Shown: in pieces, positions 12,628-43,309 of the stretch
Layout: the number at the start of each line of letters is the position of its first letter
How positions within the stretch are numbered: the stretch's first letter is position 1
Virus record (IMG/VR): IMGVR_UViG_3300009082_000959
DNA: 64,000 bases
From: a virus
Lineage: Duplodnaviria > Caudoviricetes
Strand: one strand, 5' to 3'
Notes under the pieces: generated by a model
Database searches by the model: none
What the model saw: only the letters and a program-made list of their open reading frames with translations
Told to the model about the DNA's origin: nothing
Made by a program: the position numbers and the translations under genes

Positions 12628-14502
12628 ATGTCAGCAAACAAGTTATTTACAACGGCAGAACAATGGTTTGAAGACCTAAAAAAAGAAGTCTTAAAGATAG
12701 ACCCAGTGTCGTTTGCTGAAAACTATCTTGTCGTAGACGGAAAACCACTAAAACTTGGCGGCGGGACCGGCTGGAAATACCTTACTGATATTTACAGGTA
12801 CATGGCAACGAAAGCCATGGAAGAAGATGGGAAACCCGTAGTATGTGTTAAGGGTCGTCAGGTAGGCGCAACAACTGCCGCCACTGCACTTGAACTTTTT
12901 TTTTGCACCAGCGGGCTATACGGAACATCTCCAAATAAACCACCAATAAGACTTCTTCATTGTTTTCCTGCACTAGCTCTTGTGCAAAAATTCGCAAAAG
13001 ATAAATTAAGTACAATGATGAGAACATCAAAGGATAATTATATCCTTAATCATTCTCTTGGCTACGACGCTGAATCAAAGAAAAAGAGAATTGATGTTCC
13101 AGAAGATACTCTCACAGAAAAACAATTCACCAATGAAAATAGGCTTTGGGTTGATTCCAACGCCAATGATGCTCAAAGACTTCATGGTATGTCTTTGGAT
13201 GGTATTTTCTATGATGAGGTTCAGAGAATGAACCAAGATGACATAGGAAATAGCAAAAGAACCCTAACATCTGCTCGATATGGGCCCCGCGGACAAGGAA
13301 TCCAGATGTATTTTGGCACTCCTTTGCAGCGCGGTTCAAATTTTCACAAAATGTGGGAATCCTCTGACAAAAGATATTATCATCTTGGGTGTGAAAATTG
13401 TGGTCATTATTTTATGCTATATTCTCCTGGGAATGATGATTGGGAGAAAATATGGCTATATGCTAATGTTGTGGCTTGTCCAAAGTGTCACCACGAACAG
13501 GATAAAGTTGATGCAATAGAGCGCGGTAAATGGATTCCAATGCAACCAGTTCTGCCAGACGGAAAGGAACCACAGTATGTTGGATTTCATTTTAATCAAT
13601 TGCTGATACCAAATTTTCATAAAGAAACGGTCATTAAAGAAAAACCAGGAATACATCCAACAAACTCAGAGCGCATTTGGCAAAACGAAATATTAGGAGA
13701 GTTTTACAGTGGTGAAGATTTGCCAATGTCGGAAGAAGAAATATATAAGTATTGTAGAGATATAGACAGAAGCATTTCATTTGGAGGCCCAGGCACATCC
13801 ATAAAAAGAGTGCAAAGCAACAAGATTTATTCTTCGAGTAAAATTCCCACTTTTTTGGGCATCGACTGGGGTGGTAAAATAGACGATCCAAATTCCAAGA
13901 TAGGAAAATCGTTTTCTTGTATGGCAATTATATCTGTTGATAAGGATGCGGTAGTGAGAATAGAGAATGCATTTAAACTAAAAAAGAATGATTTGCAACA
14001 CAAAAAAGATGTAGTAAGGGAAATGTTCAGAAGATTTGATATCAATTGCGCTGTCGCAGACTTAGGTCATGGTAATGATATAGTTCCAGAGCTTCAGGGG
14101 GAATTTGGAAACAGGTTAATAGGAAGCATAAGCAGTGGTAGTCTAACTAATCCAACGAAATATGACCCAGAGGAACTAAGACTGATTATAAATCATCACG
14201 TATTACTGGAAGATTTATTCGCGCATATGAGAAAGGGTAAAGTATTATTTCCATGGAAAAGTTATGAGCAAATTCAGTGGCTTATAGAGCACTGCTGTTC
14301 AATGGAAAAAGAAATACACACAGTTCAGGGTCGAGTCATATCAAGATTTGTAAAGGGTACCGGACCCAACGACGGTCTTATGGCTCTCCTATATGCCTAT
14401 TTGGCGTATAAATTTTATCTAACGCAAGGGTTTACGATAAAGGCCCACCAACTAAATGCAAAAAGTGCCGGACCAATATTGGCTTATTTGCCAAGTTTTT
14501 AA
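12628..14502 (+). CDS. Terminase large subunit (lambda gpA-like)
   Basis: Walker A VCVKGRQVGATT, Walker B IFYDEV, coupling motif FGTP, CENC/CPKC zinc site, GFHFNQL, nuclease FLGIDWG. Confidence 0.9.
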   Translation: MSANKLFTTAEQWFEDLKKEVLKIDPVSFAENYLVVDGKPLKLGGGTGWKYLTDIYRYMATKAMEEDGKPVVCVKGRQVGATTAATALELFFCTSGLYGTSPNKPPIRLLHCFPALALVQKFAKDKLSTMMRTSKDNYILNHSLGYDAESKKKRIDVPEDTLTEKQFTNENRLWVDSNANDAQRLHGMSLDGIFYDEVQRMNQDDIGNSKRTLTSARYGPRGQGIQMYFGTPLQRGSNFHKMWESSDKRYYHLGCENCGHYFMLYSPGNDDWEKIWLYANVVACPKCHHEQDKVDAIERGKWIPMQPVLPDGKEPQYVGFHFNQLLIPNFHKETVIKEKPGIHPTNSERIWQNEILGEFYSGEDLPMSEEEIYKYCRDIDRSISFGGPGTSIKRVQSNKIYSSSKIPTFLGIDWGGKIDDPNSKIGKSFSCMAIISVDKDAVVRIENAFKLKKNDLQHKKDVVREMFRRFDINCAVADLGHGNDIVPELQGEFGNRLIGSISSGSLTNPTKYDPEELRLIINHHVLLEDLFAHMRKGKVLFPWKSYEQIQWLIEHCCSMEKEIHTVQGRVISRFVKGTGPNDGLMALLYAYLAYKFYLTQGFTIKAHQLNAKSAGPILAYLPSF

Positions 14503-14514
14503 TAAAGAGGTTTT

Positions 14515-15180
14515 ATGAATAAAGTTTGTGGGCACTGCAAAGAAAAAAAGCAAGAATTTGAATTTGGAAAAGATAAATCAAGCAGCGACGGCTTGAAGTG
14601 TTTTTGTAAAAGTTGTATTAAACAATATTATATTAACAATAAAAGCAAAATTTCTGTTGCACAAAAACTCTATAGAGAAAAGAATAAAAACAAAATAGCG
14701 GATAAGAAAAAGCAATGGTGCGAAAAAAACAAAGACCGCGTGTTGGAGCATGCAAAACAATATTACGCAGACAACAAAAATGAAATTTTAGTGCAGAAAA
14801 AACATTATTATGAAGAAAATAAAACCGAAATTATTTATAAAAAGAAAAATTACCAAAGCAAAAGATTAAAAACTGACATTAATTTTAAAATAACTTGTGG
14901 TTTAAGGTCTCGGCTACATATAGCACTAAAAAATAATTATAAATCAGGTTCTGCTGTACGTGACTTAGGATGCACTATACCAGAATTAAAACTTCACCTC
15001 GAATCCAATTTTCAATCAGGAATGACTTGGGAAAATTACGGAGAGTGGCATATAGATCACATTTTGCCTCTTTCTAAATTTGATTTAACTGACAAAACAC
15101 AATTGCTTAAAGCCTGTCATTATACTAATCTGCAACCGCTTTGGGCTAAAGATAATTTAAAGAAATCGAATAAAATATAG
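14515..15180 (+). mobile_element. HNH homing endonuclease (paralog 1)
   Basis: MTWENYGEWHIDHILPLSKFDL...ACHYTNLQPLWAKDNLKKSN; N-terminal CxxC...CxxC and YYxxNK repeats. Confidence 0.85.
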
Positions 15181-15192
15181 GAAACAAAATAA

Positions 15193-18100
15193 ATGGAAAT
15201 ACGAAGAGGTCCATGGAAACCTGCTACAACCAATAAAGTAGCAACAGTAAAATCCAGTAGGTTCGGTGCGCGTCCAGCAACTGTTCTTAGTCCTGGTGTA
15301 TCAAATTCAGAGCACCATTTGGCTAATCGGCAGGCAGATACTGGCGCTATTCCCGAAAAAGTGTCAGAGTTTAGACAGGCAGAAATAATTAGAGCGACAG
15401 GATCCTCAAACAACCAAATCAAAGAGTCGCCTGCTCCATTATTATTATATAGTAATTCGTTCAAAAAATCTCAAGAAATAAAAGAAAATTTCCTGAGAAA
15501 AAGTGCCGCGTCTGTGACTTCTGGTGGATATAGTTCTGCTGGCGGCGGAACAACCATACAGGCACCAGAAATATATTCTCCACTATTTCAAATTGCAAAC
15601 CTACAGCTTCCGCGCGAAAGAATAACAATGAATGCGTGGAATAGAAATTTTTATGATACACATCCATTGGTTCACAACTGCATTAATTTGCACGCAACTT
15701 ATCCAATTAATAAAATAAACATTAAGTGCAAAGATGGCAAAATAGAACAATTTTTTAAGGATATGGCAGAGAACATAGACTTAATAGGTGTTTTGCAGGG
15801 AATGGCACTTGAGATTTTTAAGATTGGTGAGTGTTTCCCCTATGCCGAGTTGGATGAAAGAACTGGTGCTTGGAAAAGTATCGTAATTCAAAACCCAGAC
15901 TACATCCACATAAAAACATCTGTATTGGGAGGTGATCCAGTAATATCACTATCACCAGATGCGGCACTAAAACGATTGGTTCAAAGTAATAATCCAGCAG
16001 ACATACAATTAAGAAGCCAAATAGACGATGAAATTCTATATCACATTCGTAAGGGAAACAACATTCCTTTGGATAATTTTCACATAAGTCATTTGGCCCT
16101 TAAATCAGCTCCCTACGATGTGCATGGAACATCTCCAATAGTTACTGTCTACAAAGATCTTATGCTGTATGACAAACTTAGGGAGTGTTATTCTTCCGAT
16201 ACAGAAGTTTTGACTGATTCTGGTTTTATGAATGGTCTTGAATTGTCATTAAAGTATAAGAACAGTAATCAAAGCGATTTGCCATCTATTGCTTGTTTTA
16301 ATTCAGAAACAGAGATGGTTGAGCATCATAAACCAATAAAAACACATATATCAGAATATAATGGAAATATGTATAGGTTTAAGGGTAAAAAAGTAGATAT
16401 TCTCGTTACACCAGAGCATCGTATGTGGGTCAATAAGAACAAAAAGACTGGTTGGTCTGGATGGCATTTTGAACAAGCAAAGGATGTTAGCCCGTCCTAC
16501 TGGTACAAGTTTAGATGCCACGCAAAATACAATGAAGGCGAAAAGGTTGAATTTATTGATGTTCTTGGTAAAAAAATACCATCGGAACTTTACATGAAGG
16601 TTTTGGGACACATAATTTCGGAAGGATGTGTTTATCAAAGTTATAAAAACGGAAGATATGATAATAATGTTTCTATATGTCAAAATATAGAATCTAAATA
16701 TCAACAAAATATGAGAAATAATTTTAAGCAGTTTGCTGAATTATTGGGGAAAAATCTCGTAGAAAATACTAAGGTGGTTGGGTCTGGGTTTAGTGCACAT
16801 TCTCCAAAAAATAAGTGGGAAGCATTAGTGAGTGGTAAGGATTTAGTAAATTACTTCAAAAAAGAAATTGGAACAAATGATGTTTGTAATTCCGGAACCA
16901 AAAGAATTCCTAGGTGGATATTTGGACTACATTCTGATTTGTTAAAGTGTTTGTTGGAATCATTAATGGAGGGCGACGGGCATTTTTCAAGTAGTTTGTA
17001 TAATACAACATCAAAAGGCTTTCGTTATGACACTGGCTCAAAACAACTAGCAGATGATGTATATGAGTTAGTCTATCGCCTTGGATTTGTTCCGTTATTG
17101 CGAACAGTAGATAGGACTGGAGAAAATACTGGGAAAAATTTATTAGAATACTCTGTCTCTTGGTCAAACACACATTATGGCCGTGAGCCGCGTGTGTATG
17201 GAAAATCAGATTCAAAGCATCACGGTGCCCATATTGGTCAAACAGATTATGATGGTTTAGTTTGGTGCTTCGAAGTTCCTACTGGATTATTTATAACACG
17301 CAGAAATGGCAAAATAACTATTCAGGGAAACTCTAAATATGCACAGGCTGATAGCCTTGTAAATCCAATTACACTAATAAAAGTTGGTGGGGCTGGAGAA
17401 GGAGAATACAAAGCAACCGGTGATGACTTGGAGAAATGGCGTCAAATAATGGAGTGTCATGATGAAGAGACCGAGGTATTGACTGACCACGGTTTTAAGA
17501 AGTTTTTTGATGCAATTGATTACACAAGGAGCGATGATGTTGCTGTTTACACTGCATCACCAAAGACTGGAATAAAAATAGCTTGTTTTAATAATGATAC
17601 AAAACAACTTGAGTATCATATTCCATCCAGAGCTACTTTATATGATTATTCTGGAGAAATGTATCATTTCAGTGGCGGAAAATTAGATATCAAAGTTACA
17701 CCCAATCACAGAATGCTTGTTACAAGAAAACTAAAGAAAGGTTGGTCTAATAGTGAGATAATTACTGCTGAAAACCTTTCACTGGGGACACACTATAGGT
17801 TTAGGTCAGTCGCAAAATTCAACGGTGAAGAAAAAGAATCAATTAATGTTTGTGGGAAAAGTATAAAAACTGATGATTATTTGGAATTTTTGGGAAATGT
17901 TATAAGTGAGGGATATGTTTGTAAGATAAATGACAAGTATTATAATAGCATAACATTATATCAAGAAAATTGTTCTCCAGAAAAAAATAGTATGGAAACC
18001 AATTTAGAAAAAATAGCAAATTGTTTTGGGAAAACCATACAATCAAAAACAATTGATAATAGCCATACTCCATTTTCCGGCACAAATACAAGCACGATGT

Positions 18101-19422
18101 GGCGAGGAATTCTGTGCTCATCTGTTTTAACCAAACATTTGTTTGAAGAAATAGGTGAAAACGGAAAATGTAATTCGCACAACAAACGCATTCCAAGGTG
18201 GATTTATTCTCTATCTACACGACAAATGAAAATACTTATTAATTCTCTTGTCGCAGGAGATGGAACAAAATACACAAGTAAAACTGGTAAGAGTGGATTT
18301 AAATATAGTACAATATCTGAAAATTTGGCAAAAGACCTACATGAATTAGTGTTTTTGGCCGGGTTTGCTCCAAAAGTATATAAAACAAAGAATGGTCAAG
18401 GAAAAGACTATTGGCTTGTTACCTGGACTGAGAGTGGCAAGGGATCATTCCCGCATTTCGGTGGAGTATCAAATAAAAGAGAACAACAACTCACTAAAGA
18501 GCAATATAATGGTAAGGTTTGGTGCTTTACTGTTCCAACAGGATTATTTGTCACCAGACGAAACGGTTTAATTACAATTCAGGGTAATAGCGCTGAGTAT
18601 GATAAAAACTTTAAGATAATTACTCATGCAGGCGTTACGGTTGAAAGAGTTGGTGCTAATGGATCAATATTAGATATAAACCCAGACATGCAGGCTATTT
18701 TAGATAATATTTTGTACGGTCTTATGGTTCCAAAAGCGGTAGTGACACAGGAAGGTTCGTCTTTCAACAGCGCAACTGTTGGTCTAGAAGTTCTTAGGCA
18801 GCGCTACGAGGCTTTTAGGAACATGATGTCGCAGTGGCTCATTAAAAAGATATTTGCTCCAATCAGCGAAATACAAGAATTTTATGAGTATAAAGATGGG
18901 GATAAAAAACTTATTGTCCCAGACATTGAGTGGAATAGAATGATATTGTTTGATATGGATAACTATATCAGTGTATTAAACGGATTGGTCAAAGAAAAAG
19001 CAGTATCCAAGACTACACTTTTTAGAAGCCTTGGTCTAAACATCGATGAAGAGAATAGACTTCGTAAGGAAGAACTAATAAAAGAAGCTATAATAGGAAA
19101 AGAAACAGCTATTCTAAATTCAATGACTCTTGGTGCCTTGCGCTCACTAAAGGCAGAGGACGATATAATAGAACCAACAGACCAGGTTTCTCTACCTGGG
19201 ACACCTGGTTCAGAGGAATCAGGAATACCTGGAATGACTCCTCCTGGCGCCGGCGGATTAGGCGGTGGGGGTCTTGGTGGCTCTCCAATGCCTCCAATGG
19301 GCGGACTTGGCGGCGGCCTAGGTGAGCTTCCAACAGAGGGCCTTGGCGGCCCTGAAGCTCCTGCGGGCGGTGGAGAAACACCTCAAAGCCCAACGCCAGC
19401 ACCTACATCACCAACACAATAA
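15193..19422 (+). CDS. Portal protein precursor containing two inteins (spliced product ~649 aa)
   Basis: Follows TerL; exteins FYDTHPLVHNCINLHATYPI, GECFPY, PYDVHGTSPI resemble phage portal; Gly/Pro-rich C-tail; 1409-382-378=649 aa. Confidence 0.8.
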   Translation: MEIRRGPWKPATTNKVATVKSSRFGARPATVLSPGVSNSEHHLANRQADTGAIPEKVSEFRQAEIIRATGSSNNQIKESPAPLLLYSNSFKKSQEIKENFLRKSAASVTSGGYSSAGGGTTIQAPEIYSPLFQIANLQLPRERITMNAWNRNFYDTHPLVHNCINLHATYPINKINIKCKDGKIEQFFKDMAENIDLIGVLQGMALEIFKIGECFPYAELDERTGAWKSIVIQNPDYIHIKTSVLGGDPVISLSPDAALKRLVQSNNPADIQLRSQIDDEILYHIRKGNNIPLDNFHISHLALKSAPYDVHGTSPIVTVYKDLMLYDKLRECYSSDTEVLTDSGFMNGLELSLKYKNSNQSDLPSIACFNSETEMVEHHKPIKTHISEYNGNMYRFKGKKVDILVTPEHRMWVNKNKKTGWSGWHFEQAKDVSPSYWYKFRCHAKYNEGEKVEFIDVLGKKIPSELYMKVLGHIISEGCVYQSYKNGRYDNNVSICQNIESKYQQNMRNNFKQFAELLGKNLVENTKVVGSGFSAHSPKNKWEALVSGKDLVNYFKKEIGTNDVCNSGTKRIPRWIFGLHSDLLKCLLESLMEGDGHFSSSLYNTTSKGFRYDTGSKQLADDVYELVYRLGFVPLLRTVDRTGENTGKNLLEYSVSWSNTHYGREPRVYGKSDSKHHGAHIGQTDYDGLVWCFEVPTGLFITRRNGKITIQGNSKYAQADSLVNPITLIKVGGAGEGEYKATGDDLEKWRQIMECHDEETEVLTDHGFKKFFDAIDYTRSDDVAVYTASPKTGIKIACFNNDTKQLEYHIPSRATLYDYSGEMYHFSGGKLDIKVTPNHRMLVTRKLKKGWSNSEIITAENLSLGTHYRFRSVAKFNGEEKESINVCGKSIKTDDYLEFLGNVISEGYVCKINDKYYNSITLYQENCSPEKNSMETNLEKIANCFGKTIQSKTIDNSHTPFSGTNTSTMWRGILCSSVLTKHLFEEIGENGKCNSHNKRIPRWIYSLSTRQMKILINSLVAGDGTKYTSKTGKSGFKYSTISENLAKDLHELVFLAGFAPKVYKTKNGQGKDYWLVTWTESGKGSFPHFGGVSNKREQQLTKEQYNGKVWCFTVPTGLFVTRRNGLITIQGNSAEYDKNFKIITHAGVTVERVGANGSILDINPDMQAILDNILYGLMVPKAVVTQEGSSFNSATVGLEVLRQRYEAFRNMMSQWLIKKIFAPISEIQEFYEYKDGDKKLIVPDIEWNRMILFDMDNYISVLNGLVKEKAVSKTTLFRSLGLNIDEENRLRKEELIKEAIIGKETAILNSMTLGALRSLKAEDDIIEPTDQVSLPGTPGSEESGIPGMTPPGAGGLGGGGLGGSPMPPMGGLGGGLGELPTEGLGGPEAPAGGGETPQSPTPAPTSPTQ
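16186..17331 (+). mobile_element. Intein 1 in portal (382 aa, LAGLIDADG)
   Basis: Starts CYSSDTEVLT, block B LVTPEHRM, endonuclease helices LGHIISEG/LMEGDG, ends ITIQGN followed by Ser. Confidence 0.92.
17455..18588 (+). mobile_element. Intein 2 in portal (378 aa, LAGLIDADG)
   Basis: Starts CHDEETEVLT, block B VTPNHRM, LGNVISEG/LVAGDG, ends ITIQGN followed by Ser. Confidence 0.92.
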
Positions 19423-19431: not shown

Positions 19432-20187
19432 GTGTCTAAAAGACTCACAAGCAATAAAGTAGAAAGATCTATGTATCAACAGTGGTATTATGAAAACAAT
19501 AAAGACGAAATCACACAATATAAAAAGGCATATAACAAAAAAAATAAAAACAAAATAGCGGAAGAACAAAAACTATATTATGAAAATAATAAAGAGAAAA
19601 TAAAATCATATAAAAAGCAATATTACTTAGATAATAAAGACAAAATATCAGAGAAACAAAAACTATATTATGAAAACAATAAAGAGGTTATCGCAGAAAA
19701 AGAAAAACAATACTATGATAAAAATAAAGAAACCATATTGGTAAAAAATAAACAATACTATGAGGAAAATAAAGAAATAGTTTTAGAGAAAAATTCGGCG
19801 TATCGAAAAGAGCACAAAACAGAAATCACAGAAAAACAAAAAGAACGCTTAGAAGTTGATATTAATTTTAAGTTGTCATGTAGGTTGCGAACAAGACTTA
19901 GTGGTGCTTTAAAAAATAATCGCAAATGCGGTTCTGCAGTTAGTGACTTGGGTTGTTCAATATCAGAATTAAAAATTTGGTTGGAACAGCAATTTTATAA
20001 TCATTCTTATACTGGCGAACCTATGACTTGGGAAAACTACGGAGAATGGCATATAGATCACATTTTGCCTCTTTCTAAATTTGATTTAACTGACAAAACA
20101 CAATTATTGAAAGCTTGTAATTGGTTTAATCTACAACCTCTTTGGGCCGAAGATAATTTAAAGAAATCAGACAAAACAAAACAATGA
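19432..20187 (+). mobile_element. HNH homing endonuclease (paralog 2) with 15-aa tandem repeats
   Basis: Repeats of YYENNKEKIxxxxKx; same HNH C-terminus WHIDHILPLSKFDL as 14515..15180. Confidence 0.85.
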
Positions 20188-20466: not shown

Positions 20467-23400
20467 ATGCTATTCAATAATTTTAAAATTTTATCAAAAC
20501 GCGCCAAAGTTGTCAGTGATAAACCTGCATACAAAGACAAACAAGAAAGTGACAGCGGGAACACAATTTATCACTATGACGAAAAACATTTATCAAAACG
20601 CTGGCAACACAAGCGAGATAAGGTAAAAAATCTCGAAAAAAATGTAAAGAAAATACGAGAACAATATGAGAAGGATTTAAGTTCAGATGATCCCAGAACA
20701 CGCGCTATTGCTGCTGTTGTTGGTGTTATAGATGATACGGCCGCGCGCGTTGGAAATCCTGACTCTATTAAAGATCATGACACATATGGTATAACTACGC
20801 TAAAACTAAAGCACATTTCGTTTAGCGGCGGCAAAGCAAAACTAAAATTCCCAGGAAAAGACAATGTTAATCAAGACCTTACTGTTGATAATAAGAAAGT
20901 CATTAAGGTCTTAAAAGAACTTACCAAAGACAAGAAAAAAGATGATTTCCTTTTTGAGGTTGATGGGAAAAGAATTTGGGACCGTGCTATCAATAGATAT
21001 TTGTCTCCCTTTAAGATTAGTGCAAAGGATTTGCGCGGTTTCCATGCCAATCGTTTAATGAAAGAGTTACTGAAGAAAAAAGACTTTGACGAGGCTTTAG
21101 AGGAAACGGCCTCCATTGTGGGTCATGAAAAAGCAACGCTCAAAAATCAATACCTTTTACCCGAATTAGTCGAAAAATACGAAGGCAAAAAGAAAGATGC
21201 TAGCATAATGCGTTTATCAAAACGCGCTGAACTCACACCAGAAGACTTGGCTTGGGTTAATAGCATTAAGGGTTTGACTGCTGATGTTCCTTCTGCGCCA
21301 GCAACACAAACAGGTGGCGTAAAAATAAACAGTTTAATACTAGCTGCTTGGCAAACTTTATTACCATTTTTGCCAAAGGGTTCTGTGATTACTTCCGGAG
21401 AAAGAACGGCAGATGATCAAAAACGAATCCTGGAACACTATTGGCAAAAAGCAACTGGCCAAAAAATACCAGATAAACTTAAAGCCAATGATAGCGTATG
21501 GTTCCAAGTATCTAAGTCTCTTAAAGAGGACTATGGTTATATAGTTGGACCTCCGAAAACAAATGATCCTTATTCTCACTTGAACGGAAGAGCACTTGAT
21601 GTTTCTGGTGCAAACTTAAATCAAATTGCCAATATAGCGGCTTCTGTATCAAACAACCCAAAATTACCAGTAAAATTTAGAAAACCAGTAATAGAGAAGC
21701 AAAACAATTGTGTTCATCTGGGAATAGAGAACGCAGAATATAATCCTGCGGCAATTAAAGAAGTATTAAGTAGCGGATTGGGAGTTACTGCATCTATATC
21801 TGTGCGTGCAAATAAATTTTTGGATGAAATGGGTTTTGGTCTTGAAACAGAACAGGGTGATTTATTTGAGAAATCACCAATATTCAGGCATTATGATGGC
21901 TACCAAACATACAAAATTCATGATATTAGCGAAACAGAAGCTAGCAAATTAGCAAAGAGTGAACCAGACGAATTCTTTTATCGCGGACTACACAAAGAAT
22001 ACGCTAATCTTGTTCCTGGTGCTTTACGTAGCATGATACAATCGAATGCAAAATTTTTCTTTGTATTTGATTATCACAAAGATGAAAAATATTCAGACTT
22101 GTTAATTTTGGCCGCCGAACTATTATCTCAACAGGACCCTAGGGCATTTTTCTATTTCGGCCTACATAAAAAGTTTCCAGAATTAGGCAGAGGTGCTGTT
22201 GTTCAGTTGATTGATACCAATCCGGACTCATTTTTCGATCTTGGTCTGGAAAAAGAATACAGCGATTTAGAGGGAAGTGCTGGTGCTGCCAGAAACATAA
22301 AAGACCCAAATAAAATTGAAATAGAAAAAGATTCTAATTTGAATAAAGCAGCAGAGGAAGACGACGAAGAAAAAAAGAAATTAGAGGAATATTTGAAACT
22401 TCGAGAAAAATATAAGCGATTATTTAAAGACAGAGACTATAAAGAGTTTCCACCAGAGGACCGCAAAAAGGAATTTTGGAAGCATCAATTTAATCCAAAG
22501 GAAATTGGTAGTTTTCCTAGTTTCTGGGAATATCCAAAAGAAGAAGACCCGGATCGTGAGGAAAAAGAAGAAGACCTTAAAAAAAGACGCAAACAGTACT
22601 GGCAGCACCAATTAAGTCCCACCCGGTGGCTTGGCTATGGCGCTATTCCTTTTTGGAAATATCCGAAGAGTTCTGTGATGCCAGTGCTATCAAAACGCGC
22701 AGAAGTCAATGACGTTGCTGGCGTATTTGCAGTATTGCCAAAAGAAATAGCAAAACAATTTAAGTCTCTTGGTGACCACGACAACAGTGATCCACACATA
22801 ACTGTGATTTTTTGCGGTAAAGTAAAAAAGAAAGATAGAAAGTTGCTGGAAGAAACTGTCAGAGGAGTAATAGAAAACTGGAAGCCCTTTAAAGCAGAAT
22901 TAGATAGCAAGGTCACTTATTTTCCTGCAACCAAAAATTCAGATGGCTGTAAAATAGCTAAAATGAGTGTGAAATCCAAAGAACTTCACAGACTGCACAA
23001 AGAATTAAAAGAAGCGATTGAAAGCGCCGGAATAGAAATCGATGATACATTTCCTGATTACAAACCACACGTGACATTGGAATATTTAGAAAAAGGTGCA
23101 ACAAAATACGAAGACGAAGTTCCGGAAGGCTCTTGGGAAATAGATTGTGTAGAAATTTGGGGAATTGGTAAAAATAGAAAAATTAAATTTGACAAGCACG
23201 AGAAGAAAGCGTGTCTATCAAAACGGGCATCATTCACAGAAGAAGAGGCGAAGGAACTGGCCGAAAAAGGTTCTGATACTTTTTTTTACTATCACCTACA
23301 GGAAACCTACCCACATCTCGCAGAACAGGCGGCGCGTAATCTAGCAAAAGTATCAGCATTTGATTTTTTTTATTACAGACTACACGAAACATACCCACAT

Positions 23401-26400
23401 CTTATAGAATACACAGTACAAAAGTTGGTAGAAGAGAATCCCAAAATGTTCTTTTTTCGTGGTTTTCACAAAACATATCCACATCTTACAGAACAAGCCG
23501 CCAAAAACCTAGTAGAAGAGGATTCTGGATATTTCTTTAGTTATGGACTACAGGAAACATTTCCACATCTTACAGAACAAGCCGCCAAAAGCCTAGCAGA
23601 AAAGGATCCTGATACTTTGTTTTTTAGGAAACTAGATAAAATTTATCCACAATTAGGTGAGTTGGCAGCCAAAAACCTAGCAGAAAATAAACCTGCCGAT
23701 TTCTTTTACTTCAAGCTGCATAAAACCTACCCACAAATAGGAGAACAGGTGGCCAAATACCTGGCAGAAAATAATATTAGTACATTCTTTCATTACAATT
23801 TACAAGAAATCTACCCAAAACAGGGCGAGCTACTATCAAAAAATCTAGCAGAAAAGGATCCTGATACTTTCTTTCGCAGGGAATTACACAAAATTTATCC
23901 GCAACTAGGTGAATTGGCAGCAAAGAGTACGGCAGAAGAGGATCCAAAAAAGTTCTTTCTTTTTGGATTACACAAAACCTATACACACTTTGCAGAATTG
24001 GCAGCAAAAGGCATTGCGGAAATCATTCCTGGTTATTTCTTTGATACTGAATTACATAAAATATACCCACAGTTATCAGAACAGGCTGCCGAAAATTTGG
24101 CGAAAGAAAATATTGTGTCCTTCTTTTATCGCAAAATACACGAAACCTATCCACATATCGCAGAACAAGCTGCCAAAAACCTAGCAGAAAATGATGAGGG
24201 AGAATTCTTTAAATTAAATTTGCAAAAAACTTATCCACAGTTTGCGGAACAACCAATAACAAATAGATTAAAAGCACAGAAACAATTTGATTACGAAAAT
24301 CCCGATCACAGAAATAGACCTCTTAAAGCAAAACAATTAGCCAGTAAAATGTATAATCAGGGATATAAAACCTACATACACACTAATGATTTAGATGATT
24401 TGGATGGAATCGGCAGTATTCCTGGGGAAATTTGTGTAAGTTCTTGGGACTTATCCAGAAAACTGTTTTCCTCAAGCCCAATGACTTACGCTGCAATTTT
24501 TGAGGGAAGACCTTCACATTTCTTTAATCAAGATGCTTGGTCTGACGTAGGTCAGGATGGCCTACGATTTTTGACAAGTATTGGGAGAGATAGGGACTTT
24601 TACGAAATGGATGAAAACCATGACGAAGCTTGGTTTAATCCACTAGCACCAGGAAACAAATTAGTTGGCTTTGCTTTAGTGGGAATACCGAAAGATCAAG
24701 AAACATATCAAGATGGAAAGAAAAAACTACAAAAACTGGCGGAGAAAAACGGAGTAGCGTATTTGGAGTTTGGAGAAAATCCTTGGGACTTGAAAAAAAT
24801 CAGAGAAAAACCTTTAATGAAAGAATATGAAAAACCAAACCCAATGATCAGCAAATATAAAAATCTACCAGAAATGAGAGACTACGCTAAACTGAAACTA
24901 TCAAAACGTGCCGAAGAGGAAACAACAATACAACTTACCGACAAAGAAAAACAAATCTTTGATGTTTTGCTTGAAACAATAAAGCATTTTAATTTAAAAT
25001 CCACCATTAGAGTTGCCGGCGGTTGGGCTAGAGATAAAATACTTGGGAAAAATAGTAAAGACATAGATATAGCAATTGATAATATGTCTGGTAAGCAGTT
25101 TGCCGAAAAAGTATTGCTATTTGCTCGCACGAAAAACATTCCAGTAAAATCAGTTGGAGTAATAGAGGCCAGACCAGAACAATCAAAACATCTCGAAACA
25201 GCTGTGGTTAATTTACTAGGCGAGAGTATAGACTTTGTAAATTTGCGCGCAGAAAAATATGATCCAGAAACCAGAATTCCAACGGCAGTTCCTGGAACTG
25301 CTCTTGAGGACTCATATCGTAGAGACTTGACCATTAATAGTTTATTTTACAATATTAATACTGGGAAAATAGAAGATTTGACCGGCAAAGGTATAGATGA
25401 TTTAAAAAATAAAATAATAAGAACGCCAGTTCCGCCGAAGGAAATTTGGTCACAGGTTGGAATTACAGACGAATCACAAGCAATTACTCCAAAGAAAACC
25501 TTTATGGATGACCCACTTCGTGTTCTTCGTGCAATTAGGTTTGCCTCAAGATACGGATTTTCTTTGGCACCAGAATTAATGGAAGCAGCAAAGGACCCCG
25601 AAGTTCAGGAATCATTTAAAAACAAAATATCTAGAGAGCGCATCGAGGCAGAATTAAGAAAAATGATAACTGGTCCAAATCCTGTTTGGGCTCTAAATTT
25701 AATAAACGAGTTGGGTTTTAGGTCTGAAGTATTAAAACTCCCAGAACAAACAAACTGGAAAACCGGTGATGAAGATATTTGGGGAAACATAATTCAAACA
25801 CTGGATAATTTACAAAGTATAATAAAAGAAAGAAATTTGGGTGAAGCAGACAAGTTCGTTATTAATTTTGCGGCATTCTTGCATGATGTTGGCCTACTTG
25901 ATCCAAAAAACCAAGACGCGAAAAAATTGGAGAAATCCATTGGACGATCTGAATCCAGCGTCGTAGTCGCAGAACATGTATTACGAAATTTGCCAGGCGT
26001 AAGGGTTGATGAAATAGAAAGAGTAAAGAAACTAATAGATGCCACCAAACTAATAGAAAACCAAAAACACGATTTGTCTGCTATTACACGAAAACAATTG
26101 GGTAATTTTGTTAGAGCAATAGGAGACGATTGGGAAAATGCAGTTGATATTTTGGCTGCACGAAACAAGGCCAACGAAGGATTTAGTCCAGAGTATTACA
26201 GTGGAATTAAAAAACAGGTAAAGGATTTTGGTCTTGAAAAAGCCCACACAATGAAACCGCTTTTGACTGGCGAAGAATTAATGAAATTGTTTGAAAGAAA
26301 GGGCGGAAAGTGGATGGGAGACCTAAATAGAGAACTAATTCAATGGCAGTTAGAAAATCCAAACGCAACGAAGGATGATGCAATTGTCGCAGCAAAAGAC

Positions 26401-28275
26401 ATTTATGGTAAGTTTGGGTTAGATAAAAAATCATCTCTTGGCCGTTTGTCTAAATTGGCTAGTGCTGGTTTTTCAGATAAAGATGTAATTGATTTATACA
26501 AATTTATGTATTTGCGAAACCAATTAGAAAGAAGAGGAGACCCGGAAAGCGATAGTTATATTGAGTATTTAGATGAAACTATGAATGATAAACTAAAGCA
26601 TATTTTTTATGTCCTGTCGACGGTATTTGAAAAATGGCTAAAAAGACATCGAGCTATGTTTGGTGATTTAAATAATCTAGAGAATTTTGAAACCGCCGTT
26701 GCATGGTATGTTGGTAATTTAATGGATCATGTGCATGAAAAAGACATCAACAAGGCGGAGCAATACTTACCACAGTCTCGTGATGAGGTTTTAAAGTGGA
26801 AAAATACATTTAATACAATACACGAAATATACGAAAATCTTGCAAAAGGTCCATCCAGAGACATGAATAGTAATTTCTCTATAATAAGTCGCGCAATTGG
26901 GGCATCACATATCCATGGTGATATGTTGTCGTATATTAAAGAAACAGTCGATGATCCAAACCAACAAATTACGCCAGAATTAATGTCTCAATTGACTTCT
27001 GGAAAACACGAAGATTTTAAAGAGTGGAACAAAGAACTGCGAAGAATTGGTTGTAAAAAATTACACTTATCGAAGAGAGCGTCTGTTTCTGAAGAAGAAG
27101 CAAAAGACCTAGCAGAAAAAGATCCAGATAGTTTCTTTATAGACAAACTACACAAAATATACCCCAAACTTGGTGGGTTAGCTGCAAAGAATTTAGCAGA
27201 AAAAGATCCTAATAAATTCTTTTCTAGATCACTACATATAACCTACCCACATCTTGAGGAATTAGCAGCCAAAAACCTATCAGAAAATGATCATTATAGT
27301 TTTTTTTATAATGGATTACACGAAATTTATCCGCAACTAGGTGAGCAAGCTGCCAAAAACCTAGCAGAAAATGATTTTCATGAGTTCCTTGCTTTTGGGT
27401 TACACAAAATCTATCCCCAAACCGCAGTTCAAGCAGCAAAAAATCTGTCAGAAAAAGATCCAGAAAATTTCTTTTATTTCGAACTACAGCAAATCTATCC
27501 ACAATTCGGGGCCCTGGCGGCCAAAAAGATAGCAGAAGATGATGCAGAGAAATTCTTTAAATTAAATTTGCAAAAAACTTACCCACAGTTTTCAGAACAA
27601 CTCATAAAAAACAGACTAAAAGCACAGAAACAATTTGACGAGGAAAATCCAAATCGCAAAAATAGGCCACTTAAAGCAAAGCAATTGGCTAATGAAATGT
27701 ATAATCATGGATATAAAACCTACATACACACTAATCACCTAGAAGATTTAGACGGAATTGGTAGTATTCCTGGGGAAATTTGTGTAAGTTCTTGGGATTT
27801 GTCTCGTAAGCTTTTTTCTGCAAACCCAATGACTTATGCTGCTATTTTTGAGGGGAAGCCTTCACACTTTTTTAATCAAGATGTTTATTCTAATATAGGC
27901 AAAGATGGCTTGCGGGTTTTGACAGACACCATGCGTGATGACACCTCTATTTACGAAATGGATGAAAACCATGACGAAGCTTGGTTTAATCCACTTACTC
28001 CGGGAAACAAACTGGTTGGTTTTGCTTTAGTGGGAATACCAAAAGACGAAAAAGAATACCAAGAAGCCAAGAAACAGCTACAAAAACTAGCGGAGAAAAA
28101 TGGAGTATCTTTCCTAGAATTTGGTGAAAGTCCCTGGGACTTGAAAAAAATCAGAGAAAAACCTTTGATGAAAGAATATGAAAAACCAAACCCAATGATC
28201 AGCAAATATAAAAATCTACCAGAAATGAGAGACTACGCTAAACTGAAACTATCAAAACGAACCAACATTGGTTGA
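20467..28275 (+). CDS. 2602-aa multi-enzyme protein (probable polyprotein) segmented by LSKRA motifs
   Basis: One uninterrupted ORF; six exact LSKRA plus ISVRA, LNKAA, LSKLA and LSKRT fall at domain boundaries. Confidence 0.9.
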   Translation: MLFNNFKILSKRAKVVSDKPAYKDKQESDSGNTIYHYDEKHLSKRWQHKRDKVKNLEKNVKKIREQYEKDLSSDDPRTRAIAAVVGVIDDTAARVGNPDSIKDHDTYGITTLKLKHISFSGGKAKLKFPGKDNVNQDLTVDNKKVIKVLKELTKDKKKDDFLFEVDGKRIWDRAINRYLSPFKISAKDLRGFHANRLMKELLKKKDFDEALEETASIVGHEKATLKNQYLLPELVEKYEGKKKDASIMRLSKRAELTPEDLAWVNSIKGLTADVPSAPATQTGGVKINSLILAAWQTLLPFLPKGSVITSGERTADDQKRILEHYWQKATGQKIPDKLKANDSVWFQVSKSLKEDYGYIVGPPKTNDPYSHLNGRALDVSGANLNQIANIAASVSNNPKLPVKFRKPVIEKQNNCVHLGIENAEYNPAAIKEVLSSGLGVTASISVRANKFLDEMGFGLETEQGDLFEKSPIFRHYDGYQTYKIHDISETEASKLAKSEPDEFFYRGLHKEYANLVPGALRSMIQSNAKFFFVFDYHKDEKYSDLLILAAELLSQQDPRAFFYFGLHKKFPELGRGAVVQLIDTNPDSFFDLGLEKEYSDLEGSAGAARNIKDPNKIEIEKDSNLNKAAEEDDEEKKKLEEYLKLREKYKRLFKDRDYKEFPPEDRKKEFWKHQFNPKEIGSFPSFWEYPKEEDPDREEKEEDLKKRRKQYWQHQLSPTRWLGYGAIPFWKYPKSSVMPVLSKRAEVNDVAGVFAVLPKEIAKQFKSLGDHDNSDPHITVIFCGKVKKKDRKLLEETVRGVIENWKPFKAELDSKVTYFPATKNSDGCKIAKMSVKSKELHRLHKELKEAIESAGIEIDDTFPDYKPHVTLEYLEKGATKYEDEVPEGSWEIDCVEIWGIGKNRKIKFDKHEKKACLSKRASFTEEEAKELAEKGSDTFFYYHLQETYPHLAEQAARNLAKVSAFDFFYYRLHETYPHLIEYTVQKLVEENPKMFFFRGFHKTYPHLTEQAAKNLVEEDSGYFFSYGLQETFPHLTEQAAKSLAEKDPDTLFFRKLDKIYPQLGELAAKNLAENKPADFFYFKLHKTYPQIGEQVAKYLAENNISTFFHYNLQEIYPKQGELLSKNLAEKDPDTFFRRELHKIYPQLGELAAKSTAEEDPKKFFLFGLHKTYTHFAELAAKGIAEIIPGYFFDTELHKIYPQLSEQAAENLAKENIVSFFYRKIHETYPHIAEQAAKNLAENDEGEFFKLNLQKTYPQFAEQPITNRLKAQKQFDYENPDHRNRPLKAKQLASKMYNQGYKTYIHTNDLDDLDGIGSIPGEICVSSWDLSRKLFSSSPMTYAAIFEGRPSHFFNQDAWSDVGQDGLRFLTSIGRDRDFYEMDENHDEAWFNPLAPGNKLVGFALVGIPKDQETYQDGKKKLQKLAEKNGVAYLEFGENPWDLKKIREKPLMKEYEKPNPMISKYKNLPEMRDYAKLKLSKRAEEETTIQLTDKEKQIFDVLLETIKHFNLKSTIRVAGGWARDKILGKNSKDIDIAIDNMSGKQFAEKVLLFARTKNIPVKSVGVIEARPEQSKHLETAVVNLLGESIDFVNLRAEKYDPETRIPTAVPGTALEDSYRRDLTINSLFYNINTGKIEDLTGKGIDDLKNKIIRTPVPPKEIWSQVGITDESQAITPKKTFMDDPLRVLRAIRFASRYGFSLAPELMEAAKDPEVQESFKNKISRERIEAELRKMITGPNPVWALNLINELGFRSEVLKLPEQTNWKTGDEDIWGNIIQTLDNLQSIIKERNLGEADKFVINFAAFLHDVGLLDPKNQDAKKLEKSIGRSESSVVVAEHVLRNLPGVRVDEIERVKKLIDATKLIENQKHDLSAITRKQLGNFVRAIGDDWENAVDILAARNKANEGFSPEYYSGIKKQVKDFGLEKAHTMKPLLTGEELMKLFERKGGKWMGDLNRELIQWQLENPNATKDDAIVAAKDIYGKFGLDKKSSLGRLSKLASAGFSDKDVIDLYKFMYLRNQLERRGDPESDSYIEYLDETMNDKLKHIFYVLSTVFEKWLKRHRAMFGDLNNLENFETAVAWYVGNLMDHVHEKDINKAEQYLPQSRDEVLKWKNTFNTIHEIYENLAKGPSRDMNSNFSIISRAIGASHIHGDMLSYIKETVDDPNQQITPELMSQLTSGKHEDFKEWNKELRRIGCKKLHLSKRASVSEEEAKDLAEKDPDSFFIDKLHKIYPKLGGLAAKNLAEKDPNKFFSRSLHITYPHLEELAAKNLSENDHYSFFYNGLHEIYPQLGEQAAKNLAENDFHEFLAFGLHKIYPQTAVQAAKNLSEKDPENFFYFELQQIYPQFGALAAKKIAEDDAEKFFKLNLQKTYPQFSEQLIKNRLKAQKQFDEENPNRKNRPLKAKQLANEMYNHGYKTYIHTNHLEDLDGIGSIPGEICVSSWDLSRKLFSANPMTYAAIFEGKPSHFFNQDVYSNIGKDGLRVLTDTMRDDTSIYEMDENHDEAWFNPLTPGNKLVGFALVGIPKDEKEYQEAKKQLQKLAEKNGVSFLEFGESPWDLKKIREKPLMKEYEKPNPMISKYKNLPEMRDYAKLKLSKRTNIG
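20506..21213 (+). other. Polyprotein module: DNA topoisomerase IB catalytic domain
   Basis: ARVGN, TYGITTL, FPGK, AKDLR, VGH, NQYL: the R-K-R-H-Y catalytic set is present. Confidence 0.9.
21229..21795 (+). other. Polyprotein module: peptidase M15-type Zn peptidoglycan hydrolase
   Basis: ITSGERTADDQ, YSHLNGRALDV (SxHxxGxAxD) and CVHLG supply the H/D/H ligands. Confidence 0.75.
22702..23214 (+). other. Polyprotein module: 2H phosphoesterase (2'-5' RNA ligase/LigT-like)
   Basis: Two HxT motifs: DPHITV and YKPHVTL. Confidence 0.88.
23257..24264 (+). repeat. 12 tandem 84-nt (28-aa) repeats, consensus LAEKDPDxFFxxxLHKxYPQLGEQAAKN
   Basis: Counted directly in the translation; 12x84=1008 nt ends exactly at ...PITN. 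Confidence 0.9.
24265..24897 (+). other. Polyprotein module: unknown enzyme-like domain, copy A (possibly ADP-ribosyltransferase fold)
   Basis: YIHT...EICVSSW...NHDEAWF spacing resembles the ART H/R-S-E triad; fold call is weak. Confidence 0.35.
24913..26445 (+). other. cca: Polyprotein module: CCA-adding tRNA nucleotidyltransferase with HD-like segment
   Basis: RVAGGWARDKILG, KDIDIA, DFVNLRAEKY, EDSYRRDLTIN, DDPLRVLRAIRFA, KISRERI, FLHDVG. Confidence 0.92.
27109..27612 (+). repeat. 6 tandem 84-nt (28-aa) repeats of the same family as 23257..24264
   Basis: Counted in the translation; 6x84=504 nt. Confidence 0.9.
27613..28248 (+). other. Polyprotein module: unknown enzyme-like domain, copy B (duplicate of 24265..24897)
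   Basis: High amino-acid and nucleotide identity to copy A; the last ~125 nt differ at one position by my reading. Confidence 0.8.
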
Positions 28276-34219: not shown

Positions 34220-35062
34220 ATGAGTTATAGTTTAGAAGAGATTAGTAATTGGGCAAAATATTATAGCGAATGTCATTCGTTTAATAAGGTTGCCAAAAAA
34301 TTCCGTGTTAATATAAAAACAGTTAATAAGCATTTGACAAAAAATAAAGAACTGTTATCTATATCTCTTTCGCACGAAGAATCGAAAAAACTAAAAGAGG
34401 CAGGAGTTAAAAGGTGCAATAAGTGCAATACTACACTTACACTAGATAAGTTTGAGTTCAATAAGTCAAACAATTCGCATAGATCCGAATGTATTGTTTG
34501 TCGCAGAAACGAAAATAAAAAATACAGGGACTCTCATAAAACAGAGTCAGCAGAGTATCAAAAAGAGTATAGGGAAATAAACGCAGACAAAATTAAAGAA
34601 CACGATTACCAACGGCACCAGAACAACAAGCAAGTATGGAATGCAAACGTAAAAGAATGGTATTATGCAAATTGGTCTGTTATAAGACAAACACGAAACG
34701 AAAGACATAAAGAAAGAATGCGTGACGACCCAAAATATAGAATTGCTAGAACTTTGCGCGGCAGACTTCATACAATGGCCAGAAAATCTAAACTTAATAA
34801 AAAAGAACAACACACACTTGATTATCTCGGTTGTTCTATTGAGTTTTTTGTTTCTTATATTGAAAATAAGTTTTATCAAAGAGTAGAAACAAAAGAAAGT
34901 ATGACTTGGGACAACTATGGATTTTATGGTTGGCACATAGACCACATAAAGCCATTGGATTCATTTAATCTATTTGATGAGGAAGAAATAAAACTAGCAT
35001 GTCATTATACTAATCTTCAACCTCTTTGGTCGGAGGATAATTGGAGTAAAGGAAACAGGTAG
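34220..35062 (+). mobile_element. HNH homing endonuclease (paralog 3)
   Basis: WHIDHIKPLDSFNL...ACHYTNLQPLWSEDNWSKGN; N-terminal HTH and CxxC pairs. Confidence 0.85.
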
Positions 35063-35063
35063 A

Positions 35064-35732
35064 ATGGAAAAGAAGTGCAAGAGATGTAATGAAACAAAGA
35101 CCGAGGAATGTTTTTATCTCAATAAAAAAACATTAAAACGCGCAAATATATGTATTGCTTGTGACAAGAAGAGATTAAAGGAATATAGAATCAAAAACAA
35201 GGACAAGTTGTCTGCGCGGACGAAAGAGTGGCAAAAACAAAACCCAGAAAAAGCAAAAAAGAATAGGGACAATTGGGCAAGAAAACACAAAGAAAAAGTA
35301 AATGCAAAAAGCAAGCGGTGGAAGGATAAGAATAAAAAACATTCATTAGAATATAATAGTGCTGTATATGCCAGTAGAAAACATGATCCAATGTATATGC
35401 TTCCTAGAAATTTGAGGACTAGACTATATCAGGCAATTAAACATAATTTTAAGTCTGGCTCAGCAGTGGCGAGTCTTGGTTGTTCTATAAAGAGTTTTAA
35501 AAAATATATGGAATCTAAATTTTATGATAATAAAAAAACAAAAATGAAGATGTCTTGGGATAACTATGGCAAAAATGGCTGGCACATTGATCACATTATC
35601 CCTTTGGCAAGTTTTGATTTAAGTGACGCTAGTCAGCTTGCAATAGCATGTCACTATACTAATTTACAACCGTTGTGGGCAGAAGAAAATTTTAAAAAGG
35701 GCAATAGAGTTGAGGAGATCAAAAATGTTTAA
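35064..35732 (+). mobile_element. HNH homing endonuclease (paralog 4)
   Basis: WHIDHIIPLASFDL...ACHYTNLQPLWAEENFKKGN. Confidence 0.85.
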
Positions 35733-38700: not shown

Positions 38701-39399
38701 TTGGGCAAGTACGAGTTGGATCTTGGTCCAGCATCAAACGCCACCGAACCAACTTATTTCCAAGCTCATCCAAGTGGCAAGGGAACTGTTACCGAGCTTA
38801 CTCACACAAAAACACCTGAAGCTAAGGTTGAGACAATTTCAGAAGTTCATGATGTTATGCGTGATGTAGCAGAGTCAGGTCCTCGTAATGTTCGTGAAGC
38901 CGCTGCTCTATTACAGGAAGCAATTGTTAAGGGTGCTTTCTCGTCTGCCGATGTGGACGGCTTAGTTGCAGAGGGTAAGGTTGATGCTGCTGCTGCCGCT
39001 TATTGGAAGAAATACTTTGCTATGGCTCCCGATTCAAATAATTTTGGAGCGGAACTAAGCAAGGAATTTGCTACCAAGAAGAAGGCATCAGAGGATACCA
39101 ATTATAAGGTTAAGCTTCGCAGAGCTTATGACATTGGTCTCATGGCACAGGAAAAGGGAATGATAGGTGAAACCCGTGCATCACTTGATACCTATGTTGA
39201 TGAGGTTATGCAGTTTGATGACGCTGCATTTGAATCAACCAAGCGTATTGTTGCTGGTATGAGCGGCCGTAGTAAGAAGTCGTCTCTTCCAAGGGTTGGA
39301 GCTGATGCAGCTAATGAAGCTATGAATGTTACTGCCAGCTCAGATGTTGCTCCTGTTGTAAGTTTGACAGACCAACTCGGTAGCTTGGGTTGGAAGTAA
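35725..39399 (+). CDS. Prohead (maturation) protease fused to a scaffold-like region
   Basis: GAGGAG SD; NKNGDIF...KPLCKDH...VSMG...ELSLVVNGAD fits the HK97/assemblin-type His/Ser protease; long coiled-coil and low-complexity C-terminal region. Confidence 0.75.
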   Translation: MFKKLGENFDFSSSSLLEPKQALQDTEIAARFVKMAKKLRRIAPKAKDFVYGDAIIMHSAEASLIDLNTGKPILNKNGEPVQGCFEDFINKKGVKSVRWISKDGIKPYKNKNGDIFSEAELLKAYKKWIGKPLCKDHISDSVDGIRGIIIDTYYDSKFKRVRALFALDRKNYGDLARKVESGYATAVSMGTAVGRAVCTECGNVAVTEKEYCNCIRSHANYGEINLDLSPLELSLVVNGADGLAHVRNVIASMNNYVETKQARICELVNDRCVNPTELQSIADSLSDMQTKISGLLGLTKKADLGEDVAALREISKMEESLNDPEKSEETKEKLKKRIHDLEIQLDRAGEEQKQEKTWPPVRPGPVPSLPSSMDGDASDLGKPSTTTFNGFAEPNLRYASLEGDKQGALSVELGLLRSKIDKMQDSLNVLNTKVSKEENIMNSARLRARAKARRAYWLGGGGINEPTPGQPKYEKDPMAEKVRDSEDKQMVGEPLETGSEGLHPGDEEKLRDAGRNGLNLSKAELKERALKRRGYFQGGGGINEPTPGQPKYEKDPMAENVRDKEDKQLETYDMGGTDGTVPGDMEIKKTLLRAKLRAKFVKVADRTGGINKAASRWEVYAGDKMILTATGKEIFDDQLEGSWDYLSSRDYGKDVIAAIRSDGFDRVAYLLKGAADPMPADPLAGDPLAGLPAAAPAPDAAPPAAEAPAEPKKEEGGVKEKVDSALGEMEEAIESVRSAVTEGGEKLVDIEVKVDEDAKGEGKDSTPVAALTAAERSELMELHALLNESADELALISEALESNKSDRRVVNAAYQALSDAQIILEAKKKKVKDDEEEDKEDGKGFFGKKDKKDEDKDDKKDKKDEDKDDKKEDKDEKKDKKDAKKDKKDEDKEDEKESKAQKLLNDALRVRSENRAALLSKMAEPELKDMVKEKVNTEIKKELEGGLPADDAMLDDSGCLGCTDDVVESDESAKLARRKAREELVANAAKSLLGKYELDLGPASNATEPTYFQAHPSGKGTVTELTHTKTPEAKVETISEVHDVMRDVAESGPRNVREAAALLQEAIVKGAFSSADVDGLVAEGKVDAAAAAYWKKYFAMAPDSNNFGAELSKEFATKKKASEDTNYKVKLRRAYDIGLMAQEKGMIGETRASLDTYVDEVMQFDDAAFESTKRIVAGMSGRSKKSSLPRVGADAANEAMNVTASSDVAPVVSLTDQLGSLGWK
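37099..37427 (+). repeat. Direct repeat pair encoding GGGGINEPTPGQPKYEKDPMAExVRDxEDKQ
   Basis: Copies at ~37099-37190 and ~37336-37427. Confidence 0.9.
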
Positions 39400-43297: not shown

Positions 43298-43309
43298 TTG
43301 GAGACAACA

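Follow-up and report, generated by a model that had tools for sequence, protein, structure and literature searches.

Herein, we describe a polyprotein of 2,602 amino acids (aa) encoded in 64,000 nucleotides of DNA from an uncultured tailed phage (IMG/VR virus record IMGVR_UViG_3300009082_000959; this whole stretch is called the window below). On this single chain a 2H phosphoesterase and a class II CCA-adding enzyme are predicted beside a topoisomerase IB (TopoIB) and a putative wall peptidase, short pentapeptide tags stand at the borders of the modules, and the gene lies among the head genes of the phage. We propose, with somewhat less than even confidence, that the polyprotein is head-module cargo of a huge tailed phage and that its 2H and CCA enzymes act on RNA 3′ ends and maintain tRNAs. 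The wider proposal is more tentative. According to it, the capsids of huge phages from sediments and wetlands are loaded in advance with shuffled end-repair enzymes for nucleic acids, made as one chain and cut at [LI]SK[RL]A; the cargo would include the first known injected CCA-adding enzyme, which together with the 2H enzyme would undo tRNA 3′-end damage by defence systems or toxins before phage gene expression. The known kinds behind the finding are the polyvalent or cargo proteins and the CCA repair enzymes, of which the polyprotein is a variant.

The motif [LI]SK[RL][AT] occurred eight times in the chain (aa 9, 250, 741, 917, 1478, 1994, 2201, and 2595), every time at a module border, and the strict form [LI]SKRA was observed six times, against 0.007 expected from the composition of the 2,602-aa chain. 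Both the 2H and the CCA modules were flanked by [LI]SK[RL]A tags. Pfam searches with the whole chain located the topoisomerase IB at aa 47–240, the 2H domain at aa 769–879, and the CCA head with its RNA-binding neck at aa 1515–1759, and the ends of the AF2 model of the 2H module became disordered exactly at the tags (pLDDT below 50 at module residues 168–176). A preliminary description of this DNA had placed a 2H phosphoesterase and a CCA enzyme in one polyprotein at 22702–26445. This interval corresponds to aa 746–1993 and does cover the 2H, repeat/domain X, and CCA modules in a single open reading frame (ORF) with tags at the borders. Outside the polyprotein, LSKRA was observed three times, against 0.055 expected, once in each of three head-module ORFs (aa 254, 287, and 36 of the stop-to-stop frames), and these ORFs are candidates for further protease substrates or cargo.

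The tag is not confined to the window. A search with the whole-length polyprotein returned 18 long relatives of 1,472–4,243 aa on contigs of up to 468 kb; 15 of them (P0002–P0016) had [LI]SK[RL]A at the module borders, and most opened with a short leader ending in the tag. Among 164 sampled proteins, the tag stood at the borders in 47. In the head module of the P0002 locus (L002, 20629–21165), a 178-aa NUDIX hydrolase opens with Met-Tyr followed by ISKRA; an enzyme of one domain would thus have the tag as its N-terminal leader. The distant relatives P0019, P0091, P0097, P0105, and P0141 had no LSKRA and carried ARVAA/SRVAA-like pentamers at least three times each, which may be the equivalent delimiter of another clade. 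The LSKRA form of the tag had no match in the papers searched, and ISKRA matched unrelated names, so it is not usefully searchable; literature searches on TopoIB-bearing phage polyproteins and on cleavage motifs of huge phages returned nothing relevant.

The isolated 2H module scored 51.3 bits with PF13563 (cut-off 27; E = 9.5e-12 in the whole chain) and 37.1 bits with LigT_PEase (PF02834), above the cut-off. Its HxT motifs lie at aa 777–779 (nt 22795–22803) and aa 868–870 (nt 23068–23076), and neither varied among 10 homologous modules (47–71% identical) of related polyproteins, so the 2H domain is indeed intact, as the preliminary description had it. The AF2 model (pLDDT 82.6) adopted a 2H fold and matched 53 PDB 2H chains at E ≤ 1e-3. 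Judged from the two HxT motifs and the duplicated-lobe fold of the model, the module belongs to the 2H phosphoesterase superfamily. The closest solved structures were RNA 2′,3′-cyclic phosphodiesterases of the LigT/ThpR type, including that of D. radiodurans (5h7e, TMq 0.71), TT0787 of T. thermophilus, and LigT of E. coli. These best fold matches (5h7e, 1iuh, 4qak, 5ldm) had TMq values of 0.59–0.71 and E values near 1e-7, the two HxT motifs being in place, but the identity was only 16–18%, and the module fell short of the LigT/ThpR equivalog TIGR02258 (43.9 bits; cut-off 65.7). Several of the best matches among the predicted viral structures of BFVD were 2H domains that form part of large phage proteins; some of these are actinophage proteins with a capsid morphogenesis or structural annotation. 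In the model, the fold is nearest to the LigT/ThpR cyclic phosphodiesterases and not to the phage enzyme Acb1.

The isolated CCA module gave 90.6 bits with PF01743, and PolyA_pol_RNAbd was also found. Motif A (GGWARD and DIDIA, aa 1518–1536), motif B (RRD, 1618–1620), and motif D (DDPLR, 1681–1685) were present and invariant among the relatives, which bears out the earlier claim of an intact CCA nucleotidyltransferase (NTase). Comparison with solved enzymes gave E values of 1e-86 for 9kma, a "polynucleotide adenylyltransferase family protein," and 5e-64 for 9ns2, the S. pombe cca1. The module aligned over the full length of TIGR02692 and reached no NCBIfam equivalog cut-off. With these motifs and with neck, body, and tail, the module is predicted to be a class II CCA-adding enzyme. 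The closest named cellular homologues were plant and fungal CCA enzymes, with 37–41% identity over ~94–96% of the query. The phage CCA clade carries an HD domain, unlike the eukaryotic enzymes, and bacterial NCBIfam models scored far lower.

In the window, this HD domain is damaged. At the HD site (25700–26200, aa ~1745–1910), only the HD dyad (LHDVG) was kept and three of the four motif elements were lost: a 7-aa deletion precedes an Asn in place of the first His, the HGHE block was deleted, and the final Asp was replaced by Arg. The complete set (H...HD...H...D) was present in 7 polyprotein and 5 stand-alone relatives, and degeneration was seen only in the window phage. Since the NTase motifs are intact and the HD elements are lost, the NTase appears active and the HD phosphatase is probably inactive. 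No link was found between HD integrity and the presence of a 2H module, the HD domain of the window alone being degenerate. The module resembles the E. coli-type CCA repair protein (NF008137) in that a class II NTase is combined with an end-healing HD domain, the complete set of which is kept in the relatives; it differs in its weak score of 57.5 bits (cut-off, 451 bits; eukaryotic CCA enzymes, ~300 bits) and in its degenerate HD domain.

To count how often the two modules occur together, local hidden Markov models of both were run on the 164 collected proteins, and the modules were also counted in a TopoIB-anchored sample of 150 proteins, unbiased toward either module. The counts ignore shared ancestry, and the sample includes incomplete contigs. 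In all 164 proteins, both modules were found in 13, 2H only in 19, CCA only in 12, and neither in 120 (odds ratio 6.8, p = 6e-5, uncorrected for kinship); in the 150 TopoIB-anchored proteins, the corresponding numbers were 7, 17, 8, and 118 (odds ratio 6.1, p = 0.003, likewise uncorrected for kinship). The preliminary description had held that the idea of a joint role would fall if the modules never co-occurred in relatives; they do, in the 13 proteins above and in 7 of the 16 close relatives. The arrangement says more than the counts: in P0004 and P0006, 2H immediately follows CCA; in P0064, P0066, P0091, and P0109, the N-terminus has 2H with CCA immediately after it; elsewhere the two modules stood apart.

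The closest stand-alone homologues of the CCA module carry a 2H domain as well. At least 12 clusters had PolyA_pol, RNA-binding, HD, and C-terminal 2H-SAK (PF22547) domains in single chains of 646–690 aa, and these were 42–47% identical to the CCA module over ~95%. The SAK 2H domains keep both HxT motifs and belong to a different clade from the 2H domain of the window (hhalign probability 0.3%); with PF22547, the isolated 2H module gave no match at E ≤ 1. Therefore, the association of 2H with CCA arose more than once, and the joining of one CCA clade to two 2H clades, by fusion and in a polyprotein, offers good comparative support for a common task. The polyprotein and the SAK proteins thus share the CCA clade, the combination of a two-HxT 2H domain with an NTase, and, for SAK, a setting among tRNA genes on large virus-like contigs; the SAK proteins differ in being single chains with an intact HD domain, whereas the 2H of the window is LigT-like and forms a separate, upstream, tag-bounded module in a head-module polyprotein with a degenerate HD domain. 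Independently of the SAK fusions, the polyprotein would argue for a functional coupling of 2H esterases with CCA-adding enzymes. "Swiss Army Knife" (SAK, as in the Pfam title) is reportedly the name given to this RNA-repair class by Burroughs and Aravind in 2016. Two SAK genes were located among virus tRNA genes, and one SAK gene adjoins TROVE/Ro60. CCA-clade proteins were also fused to LigD_N (P0167) or Prim-Pol (P0175).

The head-module order in the window, from phrog and Pfam matches, is terminase, portal, polyprotein, protease/scaffold, and major head protein, and the position of the polyprotein is conserved on relatives' phage contigs of 171–520 kb. At L002, on a 171-kb contig, terminase and portal genes are followed by a 93-aa ORF, the polyprotein, and a 1,278-aa protease/scaffold homologue; at L007, a distant relative on a 520-kb contig, the polyprotein lies beside capsid genes. 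In the window, the ORF at 35710–39399, with its head-maturation-protease-like domain, is a candidate for the processing enzyme of the polyprotein.

The TopoIB columns R, K, R, H, and Y were invariant in 19 sequences. In the peptidase domain (aa 254–450, 21226–21816), the pattern SGxR..Q..H..G..D..H was invariant among the relatives. The domain had no Pfam match, and Foldseek with its AF2 model (pLDDT 89.6) found nothing at E ≤ 1e-3; the best VIA-align neighbours of the model were all LAS/M15 peptidoglycan peptidases, with modest Z values (VanXYg 7.8, VanYB 7.3, phage T5 L-alanoyl-D-glutamate peptidase 6.2, and Ply500 6.0). A LAS/M15-like wall peptidase, presumably a zinc enzyme, within the chain argues for action at cell entry. 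This domain directly follows TopoIB in nearly all tag-bearing relatives; the two therefore appear to form a conserved core, and the other enzymes the variable cargo. When 1.84 billion representatives were searched with a TopoIB profile, 7,441 matched, 695 of them below 1e-30, and the best 150 of the 7,441 were almost all multi-domain chains in which the position of TopoIB varied. The relatives also contained modules for a LigD 3′-phosphoesterase, a LigD Prim-Pol, and an ATP-dependent ligase, and thus the cargo appears to be a shuffled set for nucleic-acid end processing, with the 2H/CCA pair as one recurrent sub-unit. The word "kit" in the preliminary description understates this context, as the chain is predicted to hold a topoisomerase IB and a wall peptidase too. 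Taken together, the border tags, the conserved head position, and the wall peptidase make protease-processed capsid cargo the most economical reading, and the head-module site, the wall peptidase, and the tagged neighbours fit delivery with the virion, which is plausible.

We infer cleavage, packaging, and ejection of the chain, as well as the substrates of the 2H and CCA enzymes and their cooperation. The chain would be made late and taken into the prohead, where it would be cut at or beside each [LI]SK[RL]A tag, likely by the maturation protease domain in ORF 35710–39399. About seven proteins would be released, namely topoisomerase IB, the wall peptidase, the LigT-like 2H enzyme, the CCA-adding enzyme, and modules of unknown function, and these would exit the capsid together with the DNA. 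In the cell, the 2H enzyme would open 2′,3′-cyclic phosphates left by metal-independent RNases, a phosphatase (in relatives, the HD domain) would remove the remaining phosphate, and the CCA NTase would re-add C, C, and A to the tRNA 3′ tail. Host tRNAs, and any phage tRNAs, would then stay chargeable from the first minutes of infection.

Several observations weigh against this repair reading. The phosphatase step is the main internal weakness for the window phage: a LigT-type enzyme leaves a 2′-phosphate, as known from the enzymology of E. coli ThpR, and the HD site is degenerate, so the step is missing from the window chain and no complete heal-and-extend pathway can be made out there. In proteins with at least two tags (the closest subgroup, with LSKRA), co-occurrence was not significant (both modules in 7, 2H only in 9, CCA only in 7, neither in 24; p = 0.18), and each module was often found singly. 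Most of the co-occurrences in the unbiased sample came from one distant subgroup, possibly of shared ancestry, and contig fragments are numerous in the sample. A 561-aa module separates 2H from CCA in the window. The tRNA-repair kit of the preliminary description therefore stood in part: the intact motifs, the recurrent 2H/CCA pairing, and the SAK fusions speak for it, and the subgroup statistics and the degenerate HD domain against it.

Neither sequence nor fold reveals which substrate the 2H enzyme prefers, and the enzyme may act alone against signalling, like Acb1 or a 2′-5′ phosphodiesterase, and destroy upon entry the cyclic oligonucleotides or 2′-5′-linked messengers of cyclic-oligonucleotide-based anti-phage signalling systems (CBASS), type III CRISPR, or related systems, its CCA neighbour being incidental shuffling. 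T4 Acb1 (PF23474; 7t26) is likewise a phage 2H enzyme of ~150–175 aa with two HxT motifs, the isolated module reached 30.0 bits with the Pfam Acb1 profile (cut-off 27), and Acb1, viral 2′-5′ phosphodiesterases, and the poxvirus cGAMP phosphodiesterase were among the fold matches. In addition, 17–19 sampled polyproteins had 2H without CCA. Such a role was proposed by Iyer et al. 2017 (PMC5512222), who thought the 2H domains of polyvalent proteins more likely to be RNases or signal degraders because no link to RNA ligases was seen. However, the Acb1 match covers only profile positions 61–120 of 144 and drops to 21.9 bits in the whole chain, below the cut-off; PF13563 and LigT outscore it, and 7t26 ranked 35th in the PDB (TMq 0.42) and Acb1 34th in BFVD, well behind the LigT/ThpR-type enzymes. 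The repeated, convergent association with CCA would also be left unexplained. An Acb1-like action, which the preliminary description had offered as its alternative, thus keeps a partial profile match and loses on fold; it is weaker than tRNA repair, and we consider it unlikely.

Viral CCA enzymes would have a simpler role where virus tRNA genes lack an encoded CCA, and the module may mature or maintain the phage's own tRNAs, with the polyprotein as an expression format that is processed in the cytoplasm and not injected. This is the general reading of jumbo-phage CCA enzymes (PMC7824862), and it gains from the SAK-type relatives: of the 7 virus tRNA genes near SAK-type genes (L004 2346–5343 and L005 5624–17391), 6 had no encoded 3′ CCA. 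But no tRNA gene was found within the 64-kb window, the gene lies in the head module and shares its tag with other head-module proteins, a wall peptidase is fused to it, and the link to 2H is not explained. We regard this explanation as improbable to a similar degree. Lower still we place the idea that the chain is a general end-processing kit mainly for the injected DNA, serving topology, healing, and rejoining after restriction or CRISPR cuts, with the 2H enzyme and the NTase acting on ends other than those of tRNA. The TopoIB in every relative, the LigD and ligase modules, and the CCA-clade fusions to LigD_N and Prim-Pol agree with it, whereas LigD and ligase modules are absent from the window chain, and the alignment of the CCA module with the eukaryotic enzymes spans its full length, including the tRNA-binding body and tail, with the templating motif D kept.

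With capsid cargo acting on tRNA ends as the preferred reading, the polyprotein can be compared with known systems. The polyvalent proteins of Iyer et al. 2017 (PMC5512222), among which 2H domains occur as fusions with MuF or portal, are long multi-enzyme chains found with portal and terminase genes, predicted to be packaged and injected, and able to hold 2H domains and wall hydrolases; the present chain likewise has at least four enzyme domains between portal and protease/scaffold, in conserved synteny. The differences are that the text of PMC5512222 contains no "CCA," has "topoisomerase" in its reference list only, and describes no five-residue delimiter; no MuF, zincin-like MPTase, or ArdC hallmark domain was detected in our chain with Pfam. 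CCA and 2H enzymes were listed among jumbo-phage RNA-repair genes, not as capsid cargo, by Iyer et al. 2021 (PMC7824862).

T4 IPI–III, Alt with gp21, and the phiKZ-like inner-body proteins are capsid-internal proteins that are processed by the prohead protease and ejected with the DNA. The polyprotein shares with these textbook cases a short N-terminal leader and a cut-type motif common to several head proteins, but theirs are separate gene products with Glu-type motifs, whereas here the enzymes are on one chain with the basic [LI]SK[RL]A.

The tRNA-targeting toxins and defence nucleases form a major second line of bacterial immunity, and the known phage answers (T4 Pnkp/Rnl and phage tRNAs) are made only once infection begins. 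If the modules are packaged, an RNA-repair set would enter with the DNA before phage gene expression, which would be a new counter-defence strategy. The tag would also predict capsid cargo across a clade of uncultured huge phages (those 695 TopoIB-profile matches), and the cleanly delimited enzyme modules are a natural set for expression. The features of the locus are collected in Table 1.

Table 1. Polyprotein modules and head-module genes in the window
Feature	Position	Strand	Residues	Match or remark
Large terminase	12628–14502
Portal gene with intein/LAGLIDADG insert	15193–19422	+		phrog_16240 at 9e-43; LAGLIDADG_3 and Intein_splicing matches
Polyprotein ORF (P0001), uninterrupted	20467–28275	+	2,602 aa
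Leader of 12 aa ending in LSKR	20467–20502	+	aa 1–12	relatives: likewise a short leader, then [LI]SKRA
Topoisomerase IB module	20503–21225	+	aa 13–253	PF01028, 113 bits
LAS/M15-like peptidase domain (aa 254–450), then helical repeats	21226–22698	+	aa 254–744
2H phosphoesterase module	22699–23226	+	aa 745–920
About twelve 28-aa repeats and domain X (aa 1285–1481)	23227–24909	+	aa 921–1481
Predicted class II CCA-adding enzyme module, degenerate HD domain	24910–26457	+	aa 1482–1997
Module of 207 aa, no family found	26458–27078	+	aa 1998–2204	homologous modules in P0011 and P0010
Second repeat and domain X module	27079–28260	+	aa 2205–2598	paralogue of aa 921–1481
Protein with head-maturation-protease-like N-terminal domain and scaffold-like tail	35710–39399	+	1,229 aa	phrog_18299 at 1.1e-11, aa 115–223
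LSKRA-tagged head-module ORF	43298–45508	+		one tag
LSKRA-tagged head-module ORF	45527–47332	+		one tag
LSKRA-tagged head-module ORF	47232–47963	+		one tag
Major head protein	51990–53015	+		phrog_2522 at 7.7e-77

The modules at aa 921–1481, 1998–2204, and 2205–2602 had no Pfam or NCBIfam match. Domain X (~197 aa) was 84% identical between its two paralogous copies, each preceded by the 28-residue helical repeats, and an Atlas feature search with it gave unnamed clusters only, at or below 0.90. The same type of helical repeat follows the peptidase domain and recurs in the relatives. A 431-aa head-module protein (39632–40927) has two internal repeats that by eye resemble the helical repeat of the polyprotein; it had no family match.

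The window matched no GenBank phage in a megablast search, and when IMG/VR was scanned with patterns from the 2H and CCA modules, no close relative appeared, the sole locus (L001) being a 32%-identical CCA gene. In tblastn searches against GenBank phages, the CCA module had distant matches only, with identity of up to 33%, and TopoIB matched at ~30% in Xanthomonas/Erwinia jumbo phages, where it belongs to a 668-aa protein near structural genes.

Nearly all genes of the window are on the + strand. The portal gene has 1,409 codons because of its intein-splicing and LAGLIDADG homing-endonuclease insertions, whereas the portal homologue at L002 has 670 aa. A ferritin/Dps-like gene lies between the polyprotein ORF and the gene at 35710–39399, and free-standing HNH/endonuclease VII-type genes are scattered among the head genes (14515–15180, 19432–20187, 34220–35732, 42139–42870, and 53245–54777).

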